The notes under the pieces were generated by a model. That model was not told where the DNA came from and did no database searches. It saw nothing but the letters and a program-made list of their open reading frames with translations. Below, piece after piece: positions 4,159 through 42,196 of a DNA stretch of 64,000 nucleotides. The DNA is from a virus. Position numbers and translations under genes: made by a program. The DNA lies in the IMG/VR virus record IMGVR_UViG_3300042908_000680, positions 1 through 64,000 of that record. One strand, given 5' to 3'. Within the stretch, counting starts at the first letter, position 1; the number at the start of each line of letters is the position of its first letter.

Positions 4159-4159
4159 G

Positions 4160-4507
4160 TGGAGGCGGCGAGAATCGAACTCGCGTCCAGAATAATTTCA
4201 ATATAAACATCTACATCCTTAGTTAGTTGTTATCGCACAGCTAACAAAACTAACAGAATTATCTGTGTCAGATTGAATACAATCATTACCCCCATTTATG
4301 TTTGGTGAGGATACCATATCCGATTATCGGAGTCAGCATGATTGGGCAATACGGTTCATGCCACCGCACTCTTGCCTAACTAGGTCAGGCAGCGAGAGCG
4401 AAACGAGTTTCGCCAACTAACATTTTAATCGACTTTTATACTGGCCGGTCGATTAACCAGTGGATGCCATCTATATATCCGTTTACCTGTCGATACCTTT
4501 CGCCCCC
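4160..4507 (-). ncRNA. ssrA: tmRNA; tag peptide (A)GETRFALAA*
   Basis: 5' GGGGGCGAAAGGTATCGAC, 3' GAGTTCGATTCTCGCCGCCTCCA with G3:U70; internal GGC GAA ACT CGT TTC GCT CTC GCT GCC TGA. Confidence 0.92.
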
Positions 4508-17040: not shown

Positions 17041-17172
17041 CACAAGTACTTGAGAACAAACGACTTACGTTGTCTTACCATTAGACTTGACGTAAGTACT
17101 TGGAAATAAAAGACTTATGAATGATCGCCCCGGCCCCGGTCGCCGCAAACCCTTATCACCAAAGGACTTACG
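17041..17172. repeat. palindrome-doublet element 1 (sites 17091-17119, 17144-17172) plus an extra site at 17041-17069
   Basis: 11-7-11 inverted repeats, 24-bp GC spacer. Confidence 0.85.
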
Positions 17173-17235
17173 ACGAATCGGGAGTTCGTGAGAGTGGGGA
17201 AGGGGGTTTCCCCCCAACCCCAACCCTCCCACTAA

Positions 17236-18432
17236 CTAAGCGGTCAGAGCGAAAACCTTTTCGTAATCCTTGTCGGTGAAAGTATCAGCACGACGCAGGA
17301 TCGTTGCCCAGCGGTCTGCATTAGTATCAAGCAGACTGCCAGCGATTTCATCGAACTTCACCCAAGTCTTATTATCAAACTTCTGTCCCGCACGGGTCAG
17401 ACCGTTGATAATACCAAAGAGATTACGCTCTCCAGATTCCATAGTAATATACTGCTCAAGAAACTCAGTTGCTTCACGCTTGCTCAGTTTGTAATCCGAC
17501 GATACCGTAGCCACAACACCCTTCACGCTAGCCTTGCCAGTTTCCAAGGCACGGGTAGCCAGAAACTGCTTGATGCCGGGAGCAAGAAGCGGAATCTGAT
17601 CTTGGATATTATGAGCGATTTCCGTTTTCAGAACAGCGAGGTCGATATTGCCACGGTGAACGCGGCGAATCTTCTCACCCTTAGTCTGACCCCAGATGCA
17701 ACCGTTCATACAGATGGCACGAAAAAGGCTAGGCGTCTGGCTAATGCGGCGAGTGCCGATTTCGCAGTTGCCCACACTAATCATTCCACCATAATCACTA
17801 TCGTCAGCACCGTAGTCCATGATAGTATCGGGGATAAGGATATTGCCATAGATAGTATCCTCATCGCCACGCCAGTGACTGAAACGACCGCCGGGAACAA
17901 ACTCCGACAGGGTTTCCAGATACCAGCGATTATCCACTGGAGCATATTGCTCAGTCACGAACGCACGGCAAGTACCATCCGTATATGTACGGAGTCGGAA
18001 CTTCTTATCGGCGTCGATTCGACGCAGAGCATTGTTGCCAACGTATGCCATCGTGTCAGCATCCGCAAGATCGAAGTTTTCGATATTACGCATCTCACGA
18101 AGGAACGAGGACGAGGTAACACCCACGCGAACGCTAAACTGTTCAATGGCGTGGTCCGTAGGGCGAAACTCTCGTCCATCGTTCAACTTCAAAAAGAATC
18201 CTTTATCATTACCAACACAGGTAATGTTCTTACGCTCAGTCAGAATATCTTCGCGGTTCTCCACAGCGACGTTGGCATCTTGCATGACCTGCTCGTAGGT
18301 CTTGGTCTTTGCCCACCAATCCTTGTGAACATGCGTACCCTTCTCAAAACCAGTGCCAGTAGCACCAGTGAGAGTACGAACAAAATCGCCTTCGCTCGGC
18401 TTGCTCTGAATCGTCAACTTATCGTAACTCAT
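17236..18432 (-). CDS. DUF932-like protein
   Basis: YAPVDN, ISVGNCEIG...FRAICMNG and NLFGIINGLT motifs. Confidence 0.7.
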   Translation of the reverse strand: MSYDKLTIQSKPSEGDFVRTLTGATGTGFEKGTHVHKDWWAKTKTYEQVMQDANVAVENREDILTERKNITCVGNDKGFFLKLNDGREFRPTDHAIEQFSVRVGVTSSSFLREMRNIENFDLADADTMAYVGNNALRRIDADKKFRLRTYTDGTCRAFVTEQYAPVDNRWYLETLSEFVPGGRFSHWRGDEDTIYGNILIPDTIMDYGADDSDYGGMISVGNCEIGTRRISQTPSLFRAICMNGCIWGQTKGEKIRRVHRGNIDLAVLKTEIAHNIQDQIPLLAPGIKQFLATRALETGKASVKGVVATVSSDYKLSKREATEFLEQYITMESGERNLFGIINGLTRAGQKFDNKTWVKFDEIAGSLLDTNADRWATILRRADTFTDKDYEKVFALTA

Positions 18433-18479
18433 TATCAATCTCCTAGTAGTGGGTTATCAACTTCTCGTATTATACAGGA

Positions 18480-18710
18480 TCACTCGTCGTTGTCAAGGTC
18501 TGGCGGAAACATTTCATCGAAACATTGTCCGCAGATTCCGCTCAACAGTAGTTCACGTTCATTCATAGAAAGATAGTGCAGGGCATCTTGAATAGCAAAT
18601 GCACCACTCAGCCAATCGTACATATCATTCTCATTGAACATCAGCACAAACTGACGCCCGCAGTTCTTGCAGAAAGCATCGCACGAAGTATCGTAAACCG
18701 CAGCAACCAT
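18480..18710 (-). CDS. small Zn-finger phage protein
   Basis: CKNC...ERELLLSGICGQCFD. Confidence 0.65.
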   Translation of the reverse strand: MVAAVYDTSCDAFCKNCGRQFVLMFNENDMYDWLSGAFAIQDALHYLSMNERELLLSGICGQCFDEMFPPDLDNDE

Positions 18711-18785
18711 AACTGTCTCCTTTTCAACCATCATACCCTATATATCGGGCATGTCAAGGGGTCAGCATTAGTTTTTTCTTTTTGA

Positions 18786-18867
18786 CGTAAGTTGTTTGGT
18801 GATAAGGACTTACGATCAGCGGGGCGGGCCGCGTTCGCCCTAAATCCTTGTGGCTAAAGGACTTAGA
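18786..18867. repeat. palindrome-doublet element 2 (spacer in inverted orientation)
   Basis: CGTAAGTTGTT-TGGTGAT-AAGGACTTACG, 24-bp spacer, CCTAAATCCTT-GTGGCTA-AAGGACTTAGA. Confidence 0.9.
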
Positions 18868-18896
18868 GCGAATCACGGTGCTAGTCTTCCCAAGCA

Positions 18897-19352
18897 TTAT
18901 CCAAACTGAGTCCATCTACGCTCAGTAATAATATCTTTATATTTCTCGCCAGCAGGACTAAGTTGTACCATACCACTTACGCAGAATATACAACCATCTT
19001 CATCTCCCGGCTCATCATATCTATCGCCTTGATCTTCATCGTAATTATCAAAGTATAAAGTCAATCCAGTTTTTTCGTTGAAAGCCTTTGTAAGATTGAT
19101 AATATGATTGTCATACACCTTAACCATTTCCTCTGCAATCTTTTCGCTATCTTCGCTTTCTGGATTATCCAAAGATTCTAAGATATTCTCTTTGAACTGA
19201 TCGGGATCGCTCCACGACATCCAACATCCAATACTATTCCAACCCACAGAATCAAAATACTTTTCCTTTTCAATAGCCGCTATTTCATCTGGACAAATCT
19301 TTTTCAGTTCATCGTATGGAATAACATAACTACTTACCGCATAACTACCCAT
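18897..19352 (-). CDS. hypothetical acidic protein
   Basis: ORF with AGGAG RBS upstream of MGMG; exact start uncertain. Confidence 0.55.
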   Translation of the reverse strand: MGSYAVSSYVIPYDELKKICPDEIAAIEKEKYFDSVGWNSIGCWMSWSDPDQFKENILESLDNPESEDSEKIAEEMVKVYDNHIINLTKAFNEKTGLTLYFDNYDEDQGDRYDEPGDEDGCIFCVSGMVQLSPAGEKYKDIITERRWTQFG

Positions 19353-19550
19353 ACCCATGATTAGCACTCCTGAGTTTCTATGTATGTTTTACCAGTAGCA
19401 GTTTCGTATACTTCAGAAATCGCCCACGATTCCATATGTACAGTATTTTCATCTGGATACTGTGGGAGTAAAATGCCACACTTTTTAATAGCATCCTCAA
19501 TAGAGTTACAGTCTCGCATAACAGCATTGATAGTAACGTAATGGTACATA

Positions 19551-19760
19551 TTAGACCTTTGAGTAGTAGTTACTGAAAATATCATCCCACGTTGGAAACT
19601 CGTAGAAAGGATCTCCCTCGTTTACACACGCTCCCGTTTTCTGGTTGTAAACGTCATAGAAAGATACATTACGAGTATCCATATCAGCCCAAGAATCATA
19701 ACACGCATAAATATCATACTGTACATCATCCATAACATAGGTGGCTACTTTCTCGTTCAT
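19551..19760 (-). CDS. hypothetical protein
   Basis: AGGAG RBS. Confidence 0.55.
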   Translation of the reverse strand: MNEKVATYVMDDVQYDIYACYDSWADMDTRNVSFYDVYNQKTGACVNEGDPFYEFPTWDDIFSNYYSKV

Positions 19761-19911
19761 AATATACTATCTCCTAAATGGTTGGGGGCGTGTTGACTTT
19801 TAGTATTCAAACAACGTCCTATTTATTCTTCTGTAAACAGCATACTCCAAACGAAAATCATAATCATTAGTTCTATCAAGGAACCTCCCTAGTGTGATGA
19901 TAACAACACAA

Positions 19912-28907: not shown

Positions 28908-28968
28908 TTGGCACGAAAATCGCGGCCCGCCCCGTTCGCCCTAAACCCTTGTCAGATATAGAGTTACG
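28908..28968. repeat. variant element 7: TTGGCACG box + GC spacer + single palindrome (28940-28968)
   Basis: Near-copy of 26566-26626. Confidence 0.8.
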
Positions 28969-29162
28969 TCAACTATTCACAATCCAAGCCGCTATACATC
29001 CGATCACGAATGAAATAGAAAGAACAATCGCATCACCTGTACGCATATTCACTTCCTTATTGGAAAAACAAGATCAGAAACAAGGTAAGAACCAACAACG
29101 CCAATAATAAATCCCACACCTATTTGTACCCAGTTAATATCGACCATCCGTGATCCCTTTCT

Positions 29163-29465
29163 TTAAGAAATAAGTACCATATTATCTTCAAACGGAGTAC
29201 CATCACGCAAAAACCATTCAAAGTTTTTCTGGTACACATTCACGGGGCTATACTGATTAATACGCTTTTTAGTAGTGCTGGTTCGATATCCACCGCTGCT
29301 CAACTTAACCAGCCCGTTAGGATAAAAAACCACCACCTTAGTACCGTGCAACTCAATCGCCACACTTCCGTCATGTTCAATATAAGCGTATGTATTATTT
29401 CCCACCTTACGTTGACCGCGATTAGTCTTGCCCAAAACCATCTTTGTTGCTTCAGCGTGATTCAT
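29163..29465 (-). CDS. conserved phage hypothetical protein
   Basis: LHGT...GGYRTSTTKKRIN...VYQKNFEWF motif. Confidence 0.7.
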   Translation of the reverse strand: MNHAEATKMVLGKTNRGQRKVGNNTYAYIEHDGSVAIELHGTKVVVFYPNGLVKLSSGGYRTSTTKKRINQYSPVNVYQKNFEWFLRDGTPFEDNMVLIS

Positions 29466-29658
29466 TTTCTTTTCCTTTGGTTACTTCTCTTATATCGACA
29501 TTCTATCGTCTAGATTTTAGTTGTCAAGCGGATTCTCGCTGACAACGCTGACTACCACATGATCCGGCCACTTTGGCCGAGACTTCCCAGTTTGCCCAAA
29601 CCGCCCAAACCCCCCATTTTGCCTAGATTACCCACCTTGCCTATCTTACCAAAACCCC

Positions 29659-29985
29659 CTATTCTTCGTGAAATGCGGAGATTTCCTGTCCTGCCACAGC
29701 GTACATCTCATACATACTACGCAAAGCCTCTACCCTCTCTTTGCTTCCCGGTTTGCCTACCTTATGCTTCATGAGGTCACTACCCCCCACAAGGCGGGGA
29801 TCGACTTTCTCTTTCTTCATCTTGCCCATATTTCGCAAAGCCGTTTTATTAAACTTGATTACCTTTTCGCTCTTGATTGGCCCATATTCGCCATCGGCTA
29901 GGCTAGGCTGATGAGGAACGGCGATTCCCAAAAAGCATGAACGAATCTGACGTTCGGCATCGCGGATAATCTTAAACTTTTTCAT
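29659..29985 (-). CDS. hypothetical protein
   Basis: AAGGA RBS; PGSKERVEALR motif. Confidence 0.55.
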   Translation of the reverse strand: MKKFKIIRDAERQIRSCFLGIAVPHQPSLADGEYGPIKSEKVIKFNKTALRNMGKMKKEKVDPRLVGGSDLMKHKVGKPGSKERVEALRSMYEMYAVAGQEISAFHEE

Positions 29986-30002
29986 TTTTTGTTTTCCTTG
30001 TT

Positions 30003-30131
30003 TCAAGAGTTCATGAACCGAATAGCATCTTGGGAAGTCTTAAAAACCCCCAACAGTTTACGCTTTCCGTTGGCTTCGGAATATACCTTATACTTGTTTC
30101 CGACTACGATCAAAACCTGAGTCATTTTCAT
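30003..30131 (-). CDS. 42-aa micro-protein (paralog of 32173-32301)
   Basis: MKMTQVLIVVGNKYKVYSEANGKRKLLGVFKTSQDAIRFMNS, translated by hand; GAGGA RBS. Confidence 0.6.
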   Translation of the reverse strand: MKMTQVLIVVGNKYKVYSEANGKRKLLGVFKTSQDAIRFMNS

Positions 30132-30357
30132 TTCCTCTTTCTTATCTATCGACATTCTAGCGTCTAATCTTGAATATGCAAGCGGAAAAACTTACGATTT
30201 TTCTTTTTCGTTTTTCGATTCTTCGAACCGCTTTTGATTTTCACGATTCTGACGATCTATCTCCAACAAACGGAGTTCAACGTCAACATATCCTTCCCGA
30301 TTGTCACGGGAATAATCATAACCATCATCGGAATATCTATAAGACTTTCTCATACTA

Positions 30358-30504
30358 TCAACCTTTCATGCTTTCAAAAAACTTACGAACCATTTCATCA
30401 TTCTTTTTCATATCCTTATTCACAATCGGCATATTGTATGCAACTTGCCTATTGTTTTCATTCTTGATTCTCTTAATCGCATTTTTCATTGTCTTATTCA
30501 TCAT
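30358..30504 (-). CDS. small basic protein
   Basis: ORF directly downstream of the sigma54-like box at 30538-30554. Confidence 0.45.
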   Translation of the reverse strand: MMNKTMKNAIKRIKNENNRQVAYNMPIVNKDMKKNDEMVRKFFESMKG

Positions 30505-30537
30505 CTTAAACTCTCTCTTTCTTATGCTATATATAAG

Positions 30538-30554
30538 AGCAACTACCGTGCCAA
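30538..30554 (-). promoter_or_regulatory. sigma54-type -24/-12 promoter
   Basis: TTGGCACGGTAGTTGCT matches YTGGCACG-N4-TTGCW. Confidence 0.6.
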
Positions 30555-30624
30555 ACATAGATTATTTTTTTTTGCGTTTCGCTCGGGAAAAACGCTATGA
30601 CATTTTTTGTGCTTAGATATTGAG

Positions 30625-30705
30625 CGTAGCATTTTGCAACACCCTGTAGCATTTTGCGTTAGTGATTTCAGCCGTGAAACTGTGGTAGTGTAGCATTTTG
30701 CAACG
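30625..30705. promoter_or_regulatory. three quasi-palindromic YGTAGCATTTTGC(AACR) boxes, enhancer/operator-like
   Basis: Copies at 30625, 30645 and 30689. Confidence 0.55.
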
Positions 30706-30755
30706 GTCTACCCATCTTAACATGCCTCTTTTTTAGGCGTGGAATTTTTTATTTT

Positions 30756-30772
30756 TTGGCACAGCCTTTGCG
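30756..30772 (+). promoter_or_regulatory. sigma54-type -24/-12 box
   Basis: TTGGCACAGCCTTTGCG. Confidence 0.55.
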
Positions 30773-30783
30773 TCGATACTCGC

Positions 30784-30865
30784 CCTAAGTCCTTATGCTA
30801 TAAGGGTTTACGTCAAATCTGGGGGGCCGGATTCGCCCTAAGTCCTTTGGTAGTAAGGGTTTAGG
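30784..30865. repeat. palindrome-doublet element 8 (spacer inverted)
   Basis: CCTAAGTCCTT-ATGCTAT-AAGGGTTTACG / 24 bp / CCTAAGTCCTT-TGGTAGT-AAGGGTTTAGG. Confidence 0.9.
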
Positions 30866-30876
30866 TCAAATCCTAG

Positions 30877-30916
30877 GGCAAACCGTGTGCCATTCGCGCT
30901 TGGCACGGGATTTGCT
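30877..30916. promoter_or_regulatory. back-to-back sigma54-type boxes (minus 30877-30893; plus 30900-30916)
   Basis: ATGGCACACGGTTTGCC (minus) and TTGGCACGGGATTTGCT (plus). Confidence 0.55.
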
Positions 30917-31100
30917 ACGCGAAATACTGCTCTCCCCAAAAGTCCTCATCATACCCCTCTTCCTCATCTTCCTCATCTTCACCGGGAACACCGTAACCTA
31001 CCAAAAATACCTCACCCTCTTCGTTTGCCATTTCTTCCCAGCCCTTGTAGATATCCTCTTCGTTGATTTCGCTCATATCGTATACAAAGTCGTTGGTCAT
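30915..31100 (-). CDS. highly acidic small protein
   Basis: EDEEDEEEGYDEDF; promoter at 31131-31159. Confidence 0.6.
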   Translation of the reverse strand: MTNDFVYDMSEINEEDIYKGWEEMANEEGEVFLVGYGVPGEDEEDEEEGYDEDFWGEQYFA

Positions 31101-31339
31101 TTTCTTTTTCCTTTTGAAGTGATGAAATGGATTCTACAGTATCTTATCGGCAGAGTCAAGAGCGATTCTTGAAATATTCTTGGATTCTTTTTTCGTCCCT
31201 ATGATTCTCAAAAACCGTCACAACCTCAACATAAAAAACATAGACCAAAGCACCGATAAAAATCATTCCGATCATTTTCTTTTCCTTTCCCTTATATCGA
31301 CATTATACAGACTTTTCTTGAATCGTCAAGAGGATATTT

Positions 31340-31531
31340 TTACGATTTTTCGATTTCGTTTTCCGAAACTAGCATCGTATCACCAGCACTATAGGCAAAC
31401 CTTGAACCCTTGAAAGATACGCTATGGTCTAGCCTCAGTTCAAAGATTCCACGATTGGTGCATTCTCTTACGATATATCCAGAAACCTTTTTGGTTTCAT
31501 ATGCTGATCGAACGTTGCAAATCACTTTCAT
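31340..31531 (-). CDS. small SH3-like hypothetical protein
   Basis: AAGGA RBS; promoter at 31559-31586. Confidence 0.55.
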   Translation of the reverse strand: MKVICNVRSAYETKKVSGYIVRECTNRGIFELRLDHSVSFKGSRFAYSAGDTMLVSENEIEKS

Positions 31532-31622
31532 TTCTCTTTCCTTTTCTCTTATATCGACATTATACCAGAAAATCTTTAGCCGTCAATACTGTACAAATGT
31601 TTTTTCAAGATATTTTTATGCT

Positions 31623-31639
31623 AGCAAATACCATGCCAA
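31623..31639 (-). promoter_or_regulatory. sigma54-type -24/-12 box
   Basis: TTGGCATGGTATTTGCT. Confidence 0.55.
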
Positions 31640-31688
31640 AGATATTTTATTCCCTTAAACACCTCATCGATACGATGTCCTCATTAGC

Positions 31689-31770
31689 CGTAAGTCTATA
31701 TACAGTAAGGGTTTACGTCAAACGCGGCCCGCCCGATTTGCCCTAAGTCCTTATAGGGTAAGGGTTTACG
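31689..31770. repeat. palindrome-doublet element 9
   Basis: Sites 31689-31717 and 31742-31770; spacer TCAAACGCGGCCCGCCCGATTTGC. Confidence 0.9.
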
Positions 31771-31895
31771 TTCAATCTTCTACAGTCATACAGATGTACA
31801 GTAGTCCAACGTACACGCATACGAATACTAGAATGGGCATTCTATTGTCTCCCTATTGTGGGGGGTGCTTACCGGTTTAGATTAGATAGTACGCT

Positions 31896-32111
31896 CTAGG
31901 CTGCGTGAATGAACACCCGTTCACTCTTGGTCTGATTCGTGATGGTTACGATCCAGTTGCGACCACTACCATCCTCACGCATGACAGCATTGATAAGGCC
32001 AGCATATACCCTACCCTTCGGGTCGATCACACTGGTATACTTACCAGCGATCATAGATGCGAAGATAGTGTTGAGGTTATTCTTACGGACAGCGTATGCA
32101 GTGCCAAACAT
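31896..32111 (-). CDS. hypothetical phage protein (REDGSG motif)
   Basis: Own promoter at 32148-32176. Confidence 0.6.
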   Translation of the reverse strand: MFGTAYAVRKNNLNTIFASMIAGKYTSVIDPKGRVYAGLINAVMREDGSGRNWIVTITNQTKSERVFIHAA

Positions 32112-32172
32112 TTTCTTTTTCTTTCTTAGGGTTGGATAACTGTGGATATTATATCTATCGTCTATCTATTTG

Positions 32173-32301
32173 TCAAGCGTTCATGAATCGTTCGGCCTCA
32201 GTCGAACTATTGAAAGAGCCTAGAAGCCTACGCTTACCATTGCCCATATCCTTGTATACCTTGTATTTCTTTCCTACTACGATCAGCACAAGCGTTGTCA
32301 T
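32173..32301 (-). CDS. 42-aa micro-protein (paralog of 30003-30131)
   Basis: MTTLVLIVVGKKYKVY...; own promoter at 32330-32358. Confidence 0.6.
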   Translation of the reverse strand: MTTLVLIVVGKKYKVYKDMGNGKRRLLGSFNSSTEAERFMNA

Positions 32302-32377
32302 TTTCTTTTCCTTCTCTTTCTTTTGCTCTATTATATACATCGGCTTTCGCCGTGTCAAGCCTATAGAAAATATTTTT

Positions 32378-32542
32378 TCAGTTATTGGAAGCGGGAAGCC
32401 TACGAACGATATAAACCCTGCAACCATCCTCACCATCCCATTTATCGAAAGCGGCAGTATTGGCCGCATCCTCACTAGTGAAAGGGCCGATGAAGTCTAG
32501 TTCACAATCCCAAGCGTCTACGATTTGAGCGAAGTATGTCAT
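32378..32542 (-). CDS. small hypothetical protein
   Basis: Own promoter at 32571-32599. Confidence 0.55.
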   Translation of the reverse strand: MTYFAQIVDAWDCELDFIGPFTSEDAANTAAFDKWDGEDGCRVYIVRRLPASNN

Positions 32543-32602
32543 TTTCTTTTCTCTTTCTTTCTTTCTCTCTATTATATCTATCGTCTTTTCCCGTGTCAAG
32601 CC

Positions 32603-32797
32603 TCAAGCAAAAAGATTTTCGGAAGTTTGAGTCATCATGTCAACGTACATGCTACGGTATCCAATACCTTCATTCCGCGAACTATCTTCAATCATGATTC
32701 GGATCATTTCACGACCCTTGACCATTTTCTTTTCTACAATGAAGCCCGTATAAGTCTTGCCATTGTAGGTTGTCTTGATTTCAGTGTTGATTGTCAT
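32603..32797 (-). CDS. small hypothetical protein
   Basis: Own promoter at 32829-32856. Confidence 0.55.
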   Translation of the reverse strand: MTINTEIKTTYNGKTYTGFIVEKKMVKGREMIRIMIEDSSRNEGIGYRSMYVDMMTQTSENLFA

Positions 32798-32915
32798 TTT
32801 TCTTTCTCTCTTTCTTTCTTATGCTCTTATTATACCATACTTATCGGCCATGTCAAGTGGCAATCTAAAATATTTTTGAATATAATCTTGTGCCAAAGCA
32901 AGAAATATTCTCTAG

Positions 32916-32932
32916 AGCAAATGCTGTGCCAA
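32916..32932 (-). promoter_or_regulatory. sigma54-type -24/-12 box
   Basis: TTGGCACAGCATTTGCT. Confidence 0.55.
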
Positions 32933-32979
32933 ATATATTATTCTCTTAAACAGAACATCGTGTCGATCATATGATTAGT

Positions 32980-33022
32980 CGTAAGTCTATATATACCAAG
33001 GGTTTACGGCGAACGCGGCCCA
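32980..33022. repeat. truncated element 10 (one palindrome 32980-33008 plus partial spacer)
   Basis: CGTAAGTCTAT-ATATACC-AAGGGTTTACG-GCGAACGCGGCCC. Confidence 0.8.
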
Positions 33023-33236
33023 CCACATACCATCATGTTAAAATAGGGGATATAGGGGGGTTTTATCTTATAAGTAGTCTAGGCAAGATACGTCGAAAAA
33101 ACCGGGGGTGGTCCATTCACAATTGGAAATATATAAACTAATGTACTACCCAATCCTCCCCCATCGCCCCTATTTGATCCATTTAATCTGTCAATTTATC
33201 GCTATGCGGTGTATAATGTTGTATAGGAGACTTTTT

Positions 33237-33407: not shown

Positions 33408-34164
33408 GACTGTAGTAAATCAAGACGGAACTAACGATCTTTTACTATGCGGCATTTCTAATCTATTTAAAGCTTCTTACGACTATTCAGCCGCCGTTTA
33501 TAACAAGCTTATTACTGAAGATAACTCAATATCTAATGTCGTTGGATATGGTGAAGACAATAAATTCTTCTATATTCTAGAAACATACGGCCCCAACAAT
33601 AAAGTTGTTAGATACGAGCATGGTCTTGGCTATGCTTACCAGCAAGACGATAAAGCTTATTTTAAAAGATTTCTTCAAATATATAGTGGTAGCCGAGTAG
33701 AAGAGAAATCAGTTTGTTTTAAACAGACCGACTATTTCCCCTGTGATAAAGACCTAGTAACAGTATTACGTTCAACTCTTCCCGAACATTATTTCATGTG
33801 CTTATATGAAGATAATTGTGTCTTATCTTCTACCGGCCCGTTTGTTGCTAGCTCAATCAAGATTAAAGAAAATTCTTTCTTAGCTCGCGTTAACGATAAC
33901 GATCTTTCTAGCGTATCGTTCGATAGTAAAACATTTAGCGATATTATTGCTGAAGCTTTAAATAAGTATGCTAAACAACTATTGCTTAAAACTTCAAGAC
34001 TTAGCGTTAACAAGCTATCGGTAAAGCAGTTGCAATTAGAGCCTTCTAGTGATACTAGCGTTAAAAAAGGTACTTTTATATACGACGAAACAACGGACAC
34101 CGTTAAGTTCTATAACGGTTCGAAATGGAGAACATTACTGTGGGCAGAAGACGAGTCGGAATGA
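33385..34164 (+). CDS. hypothetical protein
   Basis: 259-aa ORF; C-terminal GTFIYDETTDTVKFYNGSKW resembles fibre-protein motifs. Confidence 0.65.
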   Translation: MKPSQAIETVVNQDGTNDLLLCGISNLFKASYDYSAAVYNKLITEDNSISNVVGYGEDNKFFYILETYGPNNKVVRYEHGLGYAYQQDDKAYFKRFLQIYSGSRVEEKSVCFKQTDYFPCDKDLVTVLRSTLPEHYFMCLYEDNCVLSSTGPFVASSIKIKENSFLARVNDNDLSSVSFDSKTFSDIIAEALNKYAKQLLLKTSRLSVNKLSVKQLQLEPSSDTSVKKGTFIYDETTDTVKFYNGSKWRTLLWAEDESE

Positions 34165-34649
34165 AGATACCTAAAAATATGACAGAACAACAAGTGATAG
34201 ATCAGATTAACATTGTCGTTAATAGGATATCATCACGATATACTTTTCATGGGTATGAGGTTGAGGATATAAAACAAGAAGCTTTTATTATTTGCATGGA
34301 TGCGCTAGAACGTTATGATCCAAGTCGCCCCTTGGAGAATTTCTTATCAGTACACTTATCTAATAGGCTCAAAAACTTCGTTCGTGATAATTTCTATACT
34401 AAAGATGAAGAAGAAAAGAAGAAGATCCTAAAACCCAGCAGTTTATCTTATGAAGATTATGTTCCTCATGAAGAAAAAGTTGAGGATGACAAAATAGACG
34501 CCCAAGCCCTACAAAAGACTATTGATATGAGATTACCAGCAGAATACCGATCTGATTACCTAAAAATAATTAATGACGTTTACGTTCCAAAGAAGAGAAG
34601 AGAAGAAATCATTGCGATAATCAAGGAGTTGATTGATGAAGAAGGGTAG
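34161..34649 (+). CDS. phage RNA polymerase sigma factor (sigma70 region 2-like)
   Basis: EDIKQEAFIICMDALERYDPSRPLENFLSVHLSNRLKNFVRD. Confidence 0.75.
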   Translation: MKIPKNMTEQQVIDQINIVVNRISSRYTFHGYEVEDIKQEAFIICMDALERYDPSRPLENFLSVHLSNRLKNFVRDNFYTKDEEEKKKILKPSSLSYEDYVPHEEKVEDDKIDAQALQKTIDMRLPAEYRSDYLKIINDVYVPKKRREEIIAIIKELIDEEG

Positions 34650-35421
34650 AATTTCTAAAGACGAAGAGCGTACTATTGGTAGGCTAATTAATAGCTTAAC
34701 AGTAGAAGACATTGCCAAGCAACTCGACCGAGACGTTGAATCTGTTGACAACTTCGTTAAACGTAAGTTCAAGGTTGGATTGTCAAACGAAGAAGCCGCC
34801 GCATACTCTCTAGAAGATCGCCCCTACTGGATTGAATTAGAGAACCAGTTTACTCCTTCAGAACTAGAGCTTTTTAAGTATCACTGGTCGCGCATAATCT
34901 CACAGTTCAAGGATGATGTATTTCCAACAGAAGAACTACAGGTAGTAGATGTTATTAAGCTAGAAATACTTATGAACCGCTGCTTAAAGAGTAATAAAGA
35001 TAACCTTAACGAGATGACCACTTTAGAAAAAATGCTAGCAGATGAGCGCGCCGTCGATAAGGATCAGCGTGACCATGACTACGTTTTAAATCTAGAGCGT
35101 CAACTAGCTTCATTACGGGCTTCGCAAGAAGCCCTCAATAGGGACTATCGTGAACTCCAAAGCAAAAAAGCCAGTATGTTACGAGAGATGAAGGGAACCA
35201 GAGAGCAGAGAATCAAGCGACTTGAAGATAGTAAGCAAAGCTTTACATCTTGGGTTGCTCACCTTATGCAAGACCCAGAAACGCTAAAGCGATACGGTAT
35301 CGAAATGGAAAAGATGAGACTTGCTATGCTTAAAGAGAAAGAACGTTTAAGCCAGTTCCATCAATACGAGGACGGGCAGATTGATCAGCCCTTCTTAACG
35401 CCAGATACGGTAATAGACTAA
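34636..35421 (+). CDS. HTH plus coiled-coil protein; terminase small subunit candidate
   Basis: N-terminal TVEDIAKQLDRDVESV HTH and long coiled coil; upstream of TerL (function inferred). Confidence 0.4.
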   Translation: MKKGRISKDEERTIGRLINSLTVEDIAKQLDRDVESVDNFVKRKFKVGLSNEEAAAYSLEDRPYWIELENQFTPSELELFKYHWSRIISQFKDDVFPTEELQVVDVIKLEILMNRCLKSNKDNLNEMTTLEKMLADERAVDKDQRDHDYVLNLERQLASLRASQEALNRDYRELQSKKASMLREMKGTREQRIKRLEDSKQSFTSWVAHLMQDPETLKRYGIEMEKMRLAMLKEKERLSQFHQYEDGQIDQPFLTPDTVID

Positions 35422-38621: not shown

Positions 38622-38826
38622 CAGAATAAGACATTTATTTCTTAAATCATATAATAGCCCATTTCCTACTATATTCGTAAACGCAGATGACCCAGATGAT
38701 GCATGTTTTGTAGTGTTAAACGATCTTATTAAAATTATTATGAAGCAAAATCCATCAATAGACATGAGAATAGCCTGCATAGAAATTAGAAGAAAATCCA
38801 GAATAGATAAAATATACGAATTATGA
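38578..38826 (+). CDS. hypothetical protein
   Basis: Overlap-coupled ORF. Confidence 0.55.
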   Translation: MKTYRIMLDISNVFSRIRHLFLKSYNSPFPTIFVNADDPDDACFVVLNDLIKIIMKQNPSIDMRIACIEIRRKSRIDKIYEL

Positions 38827-39083
38827 AAAGAAATTACGATGACCCCGCATACGAGAGCTTTAGGAAAGCCGTGTTAAATCGGGACAAAAGAAAGTGTATG
38901 ATGCCGGGATGTGGGAAAAAGCTATCCTTACAAGTACACCATATTAAAAAGTGGTCTAGAGCCAGCGCATTAAGATATGACGTTTCAAATGGTATAACAT
39001 TATGTAGGAAGTGCCATGACTCAATAAAGGGTTATGAACACCAATACGAATCATTATTTAGGATTATAGTCGATGACGTATAA
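38823..39083 (+). CDS. HNH endonuclease (packaging-associated type)
   Basis: RD...C..C...LQVHHI...NGITLCRKCH. Confidence 0.88.
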   Translation: MKRNYDDPAYESFRKAVLNRDKRKCMMPGCGKKLSLQVHHIKKWSRASALRYDVSNGITLCRKCHDSIKGYEHQYESLFRIIVDDV

Positions 39084-39573
39084 AGTTGCTCCACCATTCA
39101 CTGTTATAAAAGACACCAGAGAGCAGGACGGCTATTTTTTTAGCGAGTTCAATACTTGCGCTGGAATGATAGATCAAAAGCTGGATACTGGTGATTATTC
39201 CATACTTGGAATGGAAGACAAAATATGTATAGAAAGAAAGGGTTGCGTTGAGGAACTAGCAGTTAATCTAGGACAAAAGAAACATGCATTCTTAGCTGAA
39301 GTAGAGCGAATGACACCATTCCCTCATAAATTTATTGTCTTAGAATTTTCTTTAGAAGACCTCATCAAGTTCCCTGACGAAACAAGAATACCAGTTAAGA
39401 ACAAGGGAGCTTTGAAGATTACTGGTAAATATATGTTAAAATGTTTGTTTGAATTTCAGCTATATAACAACGTTCAAATATTATTTTGTGGTAATAAATA
39501 TAATGCTTTTCTTGCAGTCAGTAGTATACTAAAAAGAGTAAATGAAATGTACACAATAGGGAGGAAGAAATGA
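39073..39573 (+). CDS. ERCC4-domain nuclease
   Basis: DTREQ, LDTGDYS and IERK motifs. Confidence 0.85.
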   Translation: MTYKVAPPFTVIKDTREQDGYFFSEFNTCAGMIDQKLDTGDYSILGMEDKICIERKGCVEELAVNLGQKKHAFLAEVERMTPFPHKFIVLEFSLEDLIKFPDETRIPVKNKGALKITGKYMLKCLFEFQLYNNVQILFCGNKYNAFLAVSSILKRVNEMYTIGRKK

Positions 39574-40211
39574 TGGAACCAGAACTATTGAAAGATTTTC
39601 ATGACTATGGAGCTAATATTGCCACAAGGGAAATATTTCTTCACAATCATTACCATTCTGAAGATAATCAAAATCCCGGCGTTGAATATAGGATGTCTAA
39701 TACCTTCATTAAGAACTTAAGGGCATTAGATATGAGAAGCAATGCAAATATAACTATTCATTGCCATAGCATTGGTGGCGAATGGGCTGATGGTATGGCG
39801 ATATATGATGCTATACAGATGTGTAGATCATATGTTACTATTATCATATATGGTCAAGCTGAATCTATGAGTAGTATTTTTATGCAAGCCGCAGATTACA
39901 GATATATGACTCCCAATTCTCATTTTATGTCTCATTATGGCTCTGTTGATATTAATACTGATTATTTAAGTGCTATAAGCGAGTCTGACTATCATAGAAC
40001 TACTGCTGATACTATGTTTAATGTATATGCTGGTAGATGCGTAGAGGGCAAATTCTTCTATGAAAAGTTTGGTAAGAAGCCAAGCGTCAAGCAGGTTCGT
40101 CAGTACTTAATAAGAAAGCTAAAGTCTGGAGATTGGTATTTAAACGCAGAACAAGCTGTTTATTATGGTTTTGCTGATTCTATATTACGGAACTGGCATT
40201 TCACAGAATGA
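39570..40211 (+). CDS. clpP: ClpP-like protease
   Basis: HSIGGE...GMAIYDAI...GQAESMSS (catalytic Ser), FMSH and DWYLNAEQAVYYGFADSI. Confidence 0.85.
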   Translation: MMEPELLKDFHDYGANIATREIFLHNHYHSEDNQNPGVEYRMSNTFIKNLRALDMRSNANITIHCHSIGGEWADGMAIYDAIQMCRSYVTIIIYGQAESMSSIFMQAADYRYMTPNSHFMSHYGSVDINTDYLSAISESDYHRTTADTMFNVYAGRCVEGKFFYEKFGKKPSVKQVRQYLIRKLKSGDWYLNAEQAVYYGFADSILRNWHFTE

Positions 40212-42196
40212 AAAAAGATAATCTTAAAACAATAGATGAGGCATGGTTAGGATTAGATGTCATAGAAGCTGACATTTTTAATCCTATGTCTATTATTAAC
40301 CCATCAGATGATGACTTTCATCTTAAGTTGTCTTGGTTAATGAGTAGACCCGAATATCTACCATTTTTATGTCATCAAGTACTTAATATACAGCTTTTAC
40401 CATCTCAGTCATTAATTATGCATGAGTTGTGGAATAGAAAGTTCCCCATGTTAATTGGTAGTCGAGGTCTTGGTAAGTCGTTCCAGTTAGCCCTTTATTC
40501 TATATTAAGAGCTATGTTAATGCCCAAACGAAAGATTGTTATTGTTGGTGCTGCATTTAGACAGTCCAAGGTTTTATTTGAATACATGGAAACTATCTGG
40601 CGTAATGCCCCAATGTTAAGAGATATGTGTGATGGCAATAGCGGCCCCACTAGAGATGTTGACAGATGTACTATGAGGATTAATGAGAGTGTTATAACCT
40701 GTTTGCCACTAGGTGACGGTCAAAAGATTAGAGGTCAACGCGCTAACGATATCGTTGCAGACGAATTTGCTTCTATTCCTAGAGATATATTCGAAAATGT
40801 AGTCGCGGGCTTTGCTGCTGTTAGTGCTGATCCTGTGCAAAATGTTAAGAGAATATCCGCAAGAAAGAAGGCGGCAGAGCTTGGAATAGAAATAGAAACT
40901 GAAGAAGAGAATACAGAGATAAAAGATAATCAAATTATTCTTTCTGGTACTGCTTATTATGATTTTAATCATTTTGCTACCTACTGGAAAAAGTGGAAAG
41001 CTATTATAAAAAGTCGTGGAAATAGAGCCAAGTTAACCGAAGTATTTAGTGGAGAACAACCCCCAGATACATTTGATTGGCGACAATATTCTATAATAAG
41101 AATACCATATGAACTATTACCAGTTGGCTTTATGGATGCTGATCAAGTGGCAAGATCAAAAGCCACAGTACATGCTGGTATTTATCAGATGGAATATGGG
41201 GCTTGTTTTACTAGGGATAGTCAGGGCTTCTTTAAAAGATCATTAATAGAGTCTTGCGTTGTTGGTAGTAATGAGAATCCCGTTATGGACTCTAAGGGCG
41301 ACATTATAAAATTTGAGGCATGTCTTATTGGTGAGACAAATAAAAGATATGTTTTTGGTGTTGACCCCGCATCTGAAGTAGATAATTTTAGTATTGTAGT
41401 CTTAGAGATTGGCGGAGATTATCGTAAGATAGTTCATTGCTGGACAACAACAAGACAAGAGCATAAAGAGAAAGTAAAGAAGGGATATGCTAAAGAATCA
41501 GATTTCTATGCATATTGTGCGAGAAAAATTAGGGACTTAATGAGACTCTTCCCATGCGTTCATATTTCTATGGATGCTCAAGGTGGTGGTGTTGCAATTA
41601 TGGAATCGTTACACGACAAAGATAAAATTAAAGATGATGAAATGCCAATTTGGCCTACTATTGATGATGATAAGCCCAAAGATACAGACGGAGAAAGAGG
41701 GTTACACATATTAGAAATGTGTCAATTTGCCAGATATGATTGGCTAGCAGAAGCTAATCACGGAATGAGAAAAGATTTTGAAGATAAAGTTTTGTTATTT
41801 CCATTTTTTGATTCTATAACACTTGGATTATCAAGCTCTGAAGATGGTTTAAAAAGCAGAATGTTTGACACTTTAGAAGAGTGCGTCATGGATATAGAAG
41901 AACTTAAGGATGAATTATCTATGATCCAGATGACCCAAACATCTAATGGTAGAGACAGATGGGACACTCCAGAGGTTATAGTTGGAACTGGTAGAAAAAG
42001 TAAAATGAGAAAAGATAGATATTCTGCACTCTTAATGGCTAATATGGCTGGCAGAATAATACACAGGACTCCAACCCCAGAAACCTATCAGTTTTATGGC
42101 GGTTTTGCTACTGGTGGTCATGTTCCAGCAAAAGAAGACGAAAAGCTATATATTGGCCCCAGTTGGTTCTCTGATAACATGAAAGATGTGTATTAA
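40208..42196 (+). CDS. terL: terminase large subunit
   Basis: Walker A GSRGLGKS, IRGQRA, Walker B IVADE, coupling motif SGT, nuclease FGVDPA and KDRYSA. Confidence 0.88.
   Translation: MKKDNLKTIDEAWLGLDVIEADIFNPMSIINPSDDDFHLKLSWLMSRPEYLPFLCHQVLNIQLLPSQSLIMHELWNRKFPMLIGSRGLGKSFQLALYSILRAMLMPKRKIVIVGAAFRQSKVLFEYMETIWRNAPMLRDMCDGNSGPTRDVDRCTMRINESVITCLPLGDGQKIRGQRANDIVADEFASIPRDIFENVVAGFAAVSADPVQNVKRISARKKAAELGIEIETEEENTEIKDNQIILSGTAYYDFNHFATYWKKWKAIIKSRGNRAKLTEVFSGEQPPDTFDWRQYSIIRIPYELLPVGFMDADQVARSKATVHAGIYQMEYGACFTRDSQGFFKRSLIESCVVGSNENPVMDSKGDIIKFEACLIGETNKRYVFGVDPASEVDNFSIVVLEIGGDYRKIVHCWTTTRQEHKEKVKKGYAKESDFYAYCARKIRDLMRLFPCVHISMDAQGGGVAIMESLHDKDKIKDDEMPIWPTIDDDKPKDTDGERGLHILEMCQFARYDWLAEANHGMRKDFEDKVLLFPFFDSITLGLSSSEDGLKSRMFDTLEECVMDIEELKDELSMIQMTQTSNGRDRWDTPEVIVGTGRKSKMRKDRYSALLMANMAGRIIHRTPTPETYQFYGGFATGGHVPAKEDEKLYIGPSWFSDNMKDVY

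Follow-up and report, generated by a model that had tools for sequence, protein, structure and literature searches.

What does a 29-bp palindrome do that recurs, mostly in fixed pairs, along the early region of a phage? The question is raised by the uncultured phage recorded in IMG/VR as IMGVR_UViG_3300042908_000680, a genome of 149,498 bp (CheckV: 94% complete) whose first 64 kb are the window analyzed here. An earlier note on this DNA had described an inverted repeat with 11-bp arms around a 7-bp centre at 17.0–33.0 kb, in a block (16–33 kb) whose genes lie on the minus strand, and had read it either as the site of a cassette-shuffling system borrowing a tyrosine recombinase or as an array of in-phase DNA-bending sites. 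Judged from the sequence comparisons given below, the sites look like places of protein docking and not like RNA hairpins or recombinase sites, and we lean towards the view that the 82-bp doublet formed by two palindromes is a protein-binding double operator built into an early-promoter module.

We first asked how far the element extends. A weight matrix built from 483 members of the family described below yielded 18 sites of at least 14 bits and, together with a copy of 12.4 bits at 24774, recovered the same 19 starts as the earlier note, all located between 17,041 and 32,980 in a search of the whole genome and all possessing the 11-7-11 geometry. In shuffled genomes, 0.27 hits reached 14 bits and 0.93 reached 10 bits, and the single marginal match outside the cluster, at 1292 (10.5 bits), is at chance level. 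The core TAA-N4-WT-N7-AA-N4-TTA occurs 27 times on the two strands compared to 2.15 expected matches and a maximum of 9 in 100 shuffles, and all of its plus-strand matches in the genome fall within 17,093–32,982. The arrangement proposed before was likewise confirmed: seven doublets (1 to 7, starting at 17091, 18786, 21258, 24721, 27838, 30784 and 31689) share a 53-bp period and a 24-bp GC-rich spacer, three half elements possess one palindrome with a left (26598 and 28940) or right (32980) spacer, and two palindromes stand alone (17041 and 27762). The elements are placed after stop codons or the tRNA-Asp gene and ahead of minus-strand sigma70 promoters, as the note had described.

A pattern scan of IMG/VR returned the same element in at least 119 contigs, many of them with 3–19 copies inside ~10 kb, mostly as pairs 53 bp apart. 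All family counts in this text (483–492 unique copies and 108 doublets) concern the matches listed. At about 32% identity between the proteins that these contigs share, only the palindrome arms and the composition of the spacer have remained constant, and flanks and loops drift; the extended consensus is tTGaCGTAAGTCCTT-R-N5-Y-AAGGACTTACGtCaA. The same holds when compared to a gene pair at 34125–35421 (plus strand), which encodes a sigma factor resembling the extracytoplasmic function (ECF) type (Sigma70_r2, 174 aa) and, behind it, a 262-aa protein in which an N-terminal helix-turn-helix is combined with a long coiled coil: the homologues range from 93% down to 24–37% identity with the element consensus unchanged. 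This gene pair borders the early region in ~20 related contigs among the matches listed. That more than 100 uncultured large phages with such diverged proteins keep a rigid 82-bp element ahead of their early promoters implies a conserved protein–DNA interaction at the start of infection.

The doublet furthermore has a direction. Half-sites are of two types, TAAGTCC (A) and TAAACCC (B), which combine as A-A in 169, B-A in 123, A-B in 112 and B-B in only 12 of 492 copies. Since orientation by neighboring open reading frames was undecided for 66 of 111 doublets owing to the small size of the genes, an intrinsic orientation by expectation maximization was used instead, which told the two directions of each doublet apart with a median margin of 19 bits (108 doublets). 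Read along early transcription, the four half-sites are CGTAAACCCTT / AAGGACTTAGG / spacer / CGTAAGTCCTT / AAcgACTTACG, and their inner end is C (CAA...) in the two outer halves and T (TAA...) in the two inner halves. As each of the four has its own preferred sequence, the polarity of the doublet is fixed. A variant is found in L124, an 11.9-kb phage-like contig binned with an Enterobacterales metagenome-assembled genome (MAG), in which near-perfect palindromes with a TTGACTATCAA centre form pairs and one triplet with a 13-bp GC spacer and a 42-bp period.

The polarity coincides with the position of promoters. In 70 of the 108 doublets a strong sigma70 promoter (at least 10/12) lies within 150 bp beyond one specific end and points away from it; the three alternative configurations account for 2, 8 and 4 doublets. 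In the window, the element-associated promoters are located on the minus strand (from the start of the -35 to the end of the -10 hexamer) at 18757–18730, 21228–21201, 24702–24675, 26511–26484, 27819–27792, 28863–28836 and 32856–32829, and these seven share the spacer motif TTGACA-N2-3-CCGATA, which is missing from the promoter following doublet 7 (31586–31559). The pattern TTGAC-N3-5-CGATA has 8 matches in the genome, all on the minus strand at 18.7–32.9 kb and all in early-region promoters; six directly follow an element, those at 22791 and 31159 do not, and promoter 27819 carries CCGATA one base beyond the searched pattern. Among the 70 element-following promoters of the family, 44 belong to this CCGATA subclass. 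CCGATA promoters often possess an A5-T6-CAAG tract upstream, and the remaining early promoters have no CCGATA at that position.

The distance from doublet to promoter is not arbitrary either. Gaps to the -35 hexamer cluster at 18, 28–29, 39, 50–51 and 59–60 bp, a periodicity for which the Rayleigh test gave p = 5.5e-6 at 10.5 bp and 9e-7 at 11 bp (50 pairs, non-redundant by flank similarity). In the window the gaps are 28, 29, 18 and 18 bp, and more distal promoters follow at 102 bp (doublet 7; 18 + 8 x 10.5) and 123 bp (half element 32980; 18 + 10 x 10.5). Neighboring palindromes of the family are separated by 53 bp (154 cases), 52 bp (29), 41–42 bp (11) or 62–64 bp (5). A helical register thus exists at two levels, within the doublet and from doublet to promoter, and since both kinds of distance come in helical steps, the two palindromes and the promoter would face the same side of the helix.

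Palindromes behind genes might also act in RNA. According to this explanation, they would fold as hairpins in early or antisense transcripts and terminate, process or stabilize RNA at operon ends, similar to the promoter early stem-loop (PeSL) of T4-like phages. The elements indeed lie 0–63 bp past stop codons or a tRNA, a simple scan found no classical terminators in the early block, at these operon ends or at any element, and the upstream palindrome pairs on the antisense strand by means of G.U wobbles. Base pairing is nevertheless not what has been conserved. In 492 unique copies, Watson-Crick pairs at the variable arm positions are rarer than in shuffles (z = -5.8 and -5.9) or no more frequent (z = 0.8 and -1.6), and only the two terminal arm pairs exceed shuffles modestly (z = 2.9 and 5.2). 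C.C and G.G mismatches are frequent in the arms; in the promoter-proximal palindrome, G.G is the commonest state of pair 9/21 (50 of 108 oriented doublets). Hence, it is the DNA sequence that is conserved and not the pairing, with stems kept in sequence while the loops vary. Folding of both RNA strands of the 108 doublets revealed neither a strand preference (p = 0.12) nor a common structure, and the spacer, with 73% G+C, is no more structured than shuffles (z = 0.11) and is not a hairpin. An intrinsic terminator was rejected because no terminator-like match occurs at any element, T runs are rare (TTTT within 10 nt after the hairpin in only 11 of 108 doublets) and the spacer is unstructured; a structured RNA element was rejected in view of the missing compensatory changes at the most variable arm pairs and the Rfam search, which at E <= 1 across 16–34 kb returned tRNAs only and no family for the palindromes. 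As a role in RNA also offers no explanation for the phasing between palindromes and towards the downstream promoter, we consider it unlikely, though it keeps some weight through observations on bacterial copies and on sigma54-type boxes given below.

Sequence conservation without compensatory change, polarity, the tie to promoters and the helical register together point to double-stranded DNA sites for a protein complex. The second reading of the earlier note, an array of in-phase binding or bending sites, therefore fits in its core, as the arms show no covariation and the sites are in register; what did not stand is its scope, since the elements would organize individual early promoters and not the early DNA as a whole.

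Several doublets are accompanied by a second kind of promoter, detected with the pattern TGGCAC-N5-TTGC scored out of 10. Perfect sigma54-type boxes are located at 30757 and 30901 (plus strand) and at 32931, 30892 and 30553 (minus strand), and 9/10 boxes at 31638 and 28909. Across the family, a box antisense to the early genes has its -12 end 7–13 bp from the promoter-proximal palindrome in 24 of 108 doublets, so that transcription from it is predicted to start at the first bases of the palindrome; a further 12 possess a same-sense box 20–67 bp downstream. The boxes are positioned by the doublets, and since most doublets have no box, the doublet is independent of them. For the RNA explanation, a start on the first bases of the palindrome in these 24 cases is a favorable point, as the transcript would carry a 5′-terminal hairpin.

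The boxes also suggest that the doublets could be paired sites of a host enhancer-binding protein that activates sigma54-type promoters across the region. At glnAp2, the NtrC enhancer consists of paired in-phase palindromes, and such pairs are the usual enhancer layout. Perfect boxes cluster at 26.5–33 kb, and a box is present on the promoter side, no more than 80 bp away, in 36 of 108 doublets; the 12 same-sense ones among these (+20 to +67) would place the palindrome centres at about -60 to -130 and agree with the position of an enhancer, 80–150 bp upstream of a -24/-12 promoter. We regard this explanation as distinctly unlikely: about two thirds of the doublets, among them five of the seven in the window, have no box, in the commonest layout (the 24 cases above) the doublet occupies +1 to +82 and hence follows the predicted start, and genes for sigma54 or an AAA+ activator (PF00158) are missing from the phage. 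Apart from the doublets, the perfect sigma54-type promoter at 30553–30539 (minus strand) is located directly ahead of a small gene starting at ~30506 and is preceded by three copies of GCAAAATGCTAC 70–160 bp upstream. A ~200-bp stretch in 30500–30710 is 71–87% identical in six otherwise diverged contigs (L048, L052, L054, L077, L079 and L099).

The other reading of the earlier note held that the 11-7-11 sites are cores at which promoter-plus-gene cassettes are cut out, inserted or inverted by a tyrosine recombinase of the host or from a distal part of the phage. Tyrosine-recombinase core sites such as dif, loxP and att cores consist of inverted 11–13-bp arms around a 6–8-bp crossover region, a geometry shared by the palindromes, and gene units are bounded by the elements. 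The note had seen no recombinase gene in the window, and the 94%-complete genome likewise contains no protein of the tyrosine (PF00589) or serine (PF00239) recombinase families. Recombining sites would further be expected to share their cores. Of the 171 palindrome pairs in the window, a single one (17144 and 18786, in inverted orientation) has an identical 7-bp core, and 170 differ; in the family, cores are shared by 2.3% of pairs within a locus and 0.44% between loci, mostly in tandemly duplicated cassettes (tandem duplicates occur in L038, L094 and L124).

Comparison with relatives led to the same result. Among the closest listed relatives, L104 lacks 18465–18722, a promoter-plus-gene unit whose ends lie 5 and 7 bp from two promoter copies, and L033 lacks the gene at 23204–23392, far from any element. 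L018 is devoid of 18866–19423 with homology ending at 18865, the outer edge of a doublet, and L043 carries 284 extra bp at 17186–17190 with a homology break at 17179–17190, just outside a doublet. Thus, one indel lies between promoter copies, two breaks lie at doublet edges, which can be counted in favor of recombination at the elements, and one is unrelated to them. Homology ends at outer doublet edges (18865, 17179/17186 and 21337) or in promoter copies and never resolvably in a core; it spans the whole palindrome and stops beyond. The breaks are closer to what homologous exchange between repeated modules predicts than to what is expected for core-specific strand exchange, and the prediction that breakpoints between relatives would fall in the 7-bp cores failed. 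Since a helical register with promoters is also unexpected for recombination sites, shuffling by a borrowed recombinase appears highly improbable to us. An integron attC site was rejected as well, because the two 7-bp centres of each doublet in the window (7/7) are not complementary and no integrase is present.

Homologous exchange brings up the possibility that the elements are selfish or neutral repeats, comparable to repetitive extragenic palindromes (REPs), bacterial interspersed mosaic elements (BIMEs), miniature inverted-repeat transposable elements or PeSL-like homology patches, kept alike by duplication and gene conversion and having homologous cassette exchange as their main consequence. 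In agreement with this, it is the whole module that is repeated, including the CCGATA promoter spacer motif and the A/T tract, tandem duplicates exist in the three contigs named above, and L104 lost its unit between two promoter copies. We hold this explanation to be unlikely as well: flanks and loops drift across phages of ~32% protein identity, whereas arms and spacer composition are constant; without selection, one would hardly expect each half-site position to have its own preference or the sites to keep a helical register; and the genome encodes no Y1 transposase of the REP-associated tyrosine transposase (RAYT) type (PF01797).

Copies outside phages bear on both the RNA and the repeat explanation. 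With one genome per species, the perfect 10-7-10 palindrome occurs at 22 bacterial loci, 7 in Planctomycetota, 7 in termite-gut Treponema MAGs and the others elsewhere, as single sites that retain the R...Y ends of the centre. Ten of the 22 follow the 3′ end of a tRNA or a gene resembling transfer-messenger RNA (tmRNA) at 1–31 bp (once at 190 bp), in MAGs of Treponema, Planctomycetota and Bacteroidetes. Unlike the phage copies, those of Treponema and Bacteroidetes differ by compensatory changes, e.g. GTAATTCC...GGAATTAC. Searches of whole bacterial genomes yielded 1–17 copies per genome and essentially none with a reversed control. The maximum was found in the Phycisphaerae MAG JTS-RE133, where about 10 of 15 aligned copies share a ~125-bp flank including a GC block beside the palindrome, a point in favor of the repeat explanation. 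This dispersed ~125-bp repeat (L153, L155, L157–L162 and L166), often located at contig ends, has the palindrome in its middle, with GGGTTCGTT motifs to either side of it and a GC block on one of the two; a second subfamily (L163–L165 and L167) carries CAGACCCAGTTACA repeats in place of GGGTTCGTT. Full-text searches of the literature for the arm sequences returned unrelated primers only, and no paper on such a motif in Planctomycetes was found. Because the bacterial copies are hairpin-like or REP-repeat-like, they keep the RNA and the selfish-repeat explanations alive; because the palindrome occurs in bacterial chromosomes at all, they favor a host-encoded reader.

Which protein would read the element? 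The earlier note had pointed to the resemblance of the half-site to the consensus of integration host factor (IHF), with one exact match. The match at 27852–27864 is real and the only one among the 19 copies. The resemblance is partial: the outer half of each palindrome is CAA-N4-TTA, pointing outward, and 320 of 483 family copies (66%) contain at least the CAA-N4-TTR core, while the full consensus WATCAANNNNTTR is found in 31 (6%) and the N4, free in the IHF consensus, is GGAC in 70–77% of copies. A canonical IHF site was rejected on these counts. Profiles of 30 neighboring proteins against PHROGs and Pfam returned the sigma70_r2 protein (34125–34649) and a weak winged-helix match in the 262-aa coiled-coil protein (34633–35421), and none for the conserved early proteins. 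One of these (29662–29985, minus strand), small and basic with the motifs FLGIAIP, SEKVLKFNR and VGKPGSxER, is the best-conserved gene beside the elements; it is 43–75% identical in contigs whose sigma factor is only 24–44% identical and matches no family. As the binder, a host factor is slightly favored over a phage protein, because the site is far better conserved than any phage protein nearby.

Several points weigh against a double operator. The search returned no binding protein, and the 94%-complete genome encodes no HU/IHF homologue. The early protein at 29662–29985 has no recognizable DNA-binding fold and no usable match in a protein atlas, and its AlphaFold model is of low confidence (predicted local distance difference test score, pLDDT, 62; predicted template modeling score, pTM, 0.28). 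Copies within a genome are related by duplication, so that the clustering of distances may be partly inherited and not selected, an effect that the clustering by flanks was used to reduce. The bacterial palindromes, mostly perfect, varying by compensation and directly following a tRNA in 10 of 22 loci, behave like hairpins, and the ancestral element may have had an RNA or single-strand role. Finally, near-consensus promoters with A/T tracts should be strong unaided, and whether a bound protein would activate or repress them is thus a guess.

With these points in mind, we propose that each 82-bp doublet may serve as a double-stranded docking site for a sequence-specific protein complex, most likely two dimers or two oriented units that would sit on the same helix face across the stiff GC-rich spacer. 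Along early transcription, the putative module would consist of the end of the previous gene or tRNA, the upstream palindrome (CGTAAACCCTT, AAGGACTTAGG), the GC spacer, the promoter-proximal palindrome (CGTAAGTCCTT, AAcgACTTACG), an A/T tract or sigma54-type box spanning integral helical turns and the sigma70 promoter TTGACA-nnGCCGATAA-TAKAAT. The bound protein would bend or wrap the upstream DNA and thereby set the activity of the adjacent early promoter, by stimulation or by a timed shut-off, and might in addition occlude the sigma54-type starts abutting the palindromes. As a by-product, the repeated modules would provide homology patches for the gain and loss of cassettes.

A more speculative extension, to which we assign a small chance, is a two-way switch. 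A conserved host architectural factor, when bound, would support the sigma70 early promoter 1–6 turns downstream and cover the abutting sigma54-type starts that point back into the preceding early operon; its release or titration would permit antisense transcription by sigma54, either independent of an activator or activated by the host, that helps to shut off the early genes. If true, sigma54 and a host nucleoid-type factor would be used for phage timing, for which no published precedent was found.

The individual elements of the window differ in detail. At the left end, the degenerate lone palindrome 17041..17069 (19.2 bits) overlaps the -35 area of a minus-strand extended -10 promoter. Doublet 1 (17091..17172; 26.3 and 26.0 bits) consists of palindromes 17091–17119 and 17144–17172 with the GC spacer 17120–17143 and lies 63 bp past the stop codon of a 400-aa gene (17236–18438). 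Doublet 2 (18786..18867; 33.3 and 32.6 bits), whose spacer motif is flipped compared to the remaining doublets, is located 28 bp upstream of the minus-strand promoter 18757–18730. At doublet 3 (21258..21339; 32.2 and 33.3 bits), the stop codon at 21347 precedes by 7 bp and the perfect promoter 21228–21201 follows after 29 bp. Doublet 4 (24721..24802; 29.2 and 12.4 bits) is abutted by the stop codon at 24803 and followed after 18 bp by promoter 24702–24675; its upstream palindrome (24774) is degenerate and its promoter-proximal one reads TTGACG-N17-TAGACT on the minus strand. The half element 26567..26626, composed of the GC spacer and palindrome 26598–26626 (32.1 bits), lies 8 bp past the 3′ end of tRNA-Asp, and a sigma54-like box TGGCACG-N4-ACGC (26567–26581, plus strand) takes the place of the second palindrome.

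Further along, the lone palindrome 27762..27790 (28.0 bits) begins 1 bp past the -10 hexamer of promoter 27819–27792 and therefore covers the predicted start site. The same promoter follows doublet 5 (27838..27919; 16.5 and 32.4 bits), which contains the full IHF-consensus match, after 18 bp. In the half element 28909..28968, a sigma54-like box (28909–28923, plus strand, 9/10) again stands where the second palindrome would be, followed by the GC spacer and palindrome 28940–28968 (24.8 bits). Doublet 6 (30784–30865; 35.2 and 33.3 bits) is flanked by perfect (10/10) sigma54-type boxes pointing inward, 30757–30771 (plus) and 30892–30878 (minus), each 12 bp from the palindrome edge, which gives a composite element of 30757..30892. 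Doublet 7 (31689..31770; 28.6 and 34.6 bits), with TTGACG-N17-TAGACT as its promoter-proximal palindrome, is followed by a sigma54-like box (31638–31624, minus) and then by the sigma70 promoter 31586–31559. The half element 32980..33032 (palindrome plus GC spacer; 28.4 bits) marks the divergence point of the leftward early and the rightward genes and is followed by a sigma54 box (32931–32917) and promoter 32856–32829. That the palindrome itself is a sigma70 promoter fits only few copies (TTGACG-N17-TAGACT at 24721 and 31689, TTGATG-N17-TAGACT at 27838) and was rejected; the same applies to an ECF-type promoter and to BirA, HAIR or CIRCE operators, which the palindrome resembles but whose spacing does not fit.

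The block in which these elements reside has a G+C content of 0.40–0.46 compared to 0.32–0.36 in its flanks, and between 16000 and 33000 it lies 7–10 percentage points above the remaining genome. It harbors seven tRNA genes and, in a simple scan, 25 minus-strand promoters scoring at least 10/12, six of which are perfect (TTGACA-N16/17-TATAAT). At 31100–32860 (minus strand), seven tandem mini-cassettes follow each other, in each of which a perfect promoter, nearly identical between the units, is followed by the purine-rich leader AAGAAAGAGAAAAGAAA and a single gene of 60–100 codons; four of them (32856–31896) have no palindrome element in between. Elsewhere, the phage encodes a tmRNA (4159–4507) with the tag peptide GETRFALAA, which we take to resemble the G-initial tags of Bacteroidota and Deinococcota types and which is thus a possible host clue, and ten tRNAs, the tmRNA/tRNA span being 4038–27298. 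Genes for an HNH endonuclease and an ERCC4-domain nuclease (38823–39573, plus strand) are located immediately upstream of the large terminase gene (40208–42196). Megablast of 8-kb genome pieces returned no match to isolated phages, and in tblastn the large terminase is at best 24–28% identical to that of any isolate; by this sequence measure, the phage is not T4-like.

If the doublet is indeed read by a protein, knowing this protein would open a way into the control of early genes and, in case of a host factor, provide a pointer to the host of a phage group without a cultured member. The element may further serve as a sequence marker for the early regions of this phage clade, its repeated modules may account in part for the shuffling of small early genes, and the fixed juxtaposition of box and doublet links two features and makes the exploitation of sigma54 by phages testable with simple reporters.

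Among known systems, the PeSL of T4-like phages is a stem-loop with G/C runs that was shown to terminate transcription, and modules carrying it undergo homologous exchange (PMC2839356, PMC4122927). Both are repeated composite intergenic modules of a hyperplastic early region in which a conserved element is joined to an A/T-rich tract and a strong sigma70 promoter; cassettes may likewise be gained or lost between copies by homologous exchange in the phage described here, with L104 as the one clear case. While PeSL is one terminating stem-loop, the doublet has two 29-bp palindromes, spaced at 53 bp and conserved in sequence, that show no pairing covariation, lack a U tract and stand in register with the promoter. 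Extragenic palindrome pairs are also known from bacteria as BIMEs, REP doublets and REPINs (PMC3733652), which likewise have short linkers and lie at operon ends. REPs are species-specific palindromes with a GTAG or CGTC head, whose pairing is retained and which are accompanied by RAYT transposases, and some BIMEs bind IHF or gyrase; a REP or REPIN was rejected here, as the head is CGTAAG, covariation is absent and PF01797 has no match.

The likeness to protein-read sites is of a different kind. In phage phi29, p4 binds sites 1–4 between the promoters A2c, A2b and A3, bends the DNA and both represses and activates. Its sites, like those described here, are inverted repeats whose contacted outer parts lie ~two turns apart, and they are paired and either precede promoters or overlap with them; p4 is a product of the phage itself and serves one control region, compared to 7–17 modules per genome and no p4-like or other binder found here. 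IHF assists phage early promoters at the tandem sites of lambda pL and at Mu Pe, and architectural sites upstream of early promoters are a shared feature; IHF requires neither a conserved N4 nor a terminal CG, whereas both the N4 (GGAC) and the terminal CG are conserved in the palindromes. The stoperators of Cluster A mycobacteriophages and the KorB operators of RK2 distribute many operator copies over transcription units under one regulator, encoded by the element itself. The palindromes, too, would be one operator repeated across a series of transcription units, yet stoperators and KorB operators are short and solitary, with neither a fixed doublet geometry nor phasing to promoters, whereas the sites of this phage family form fixed doublets in register with their promoters.

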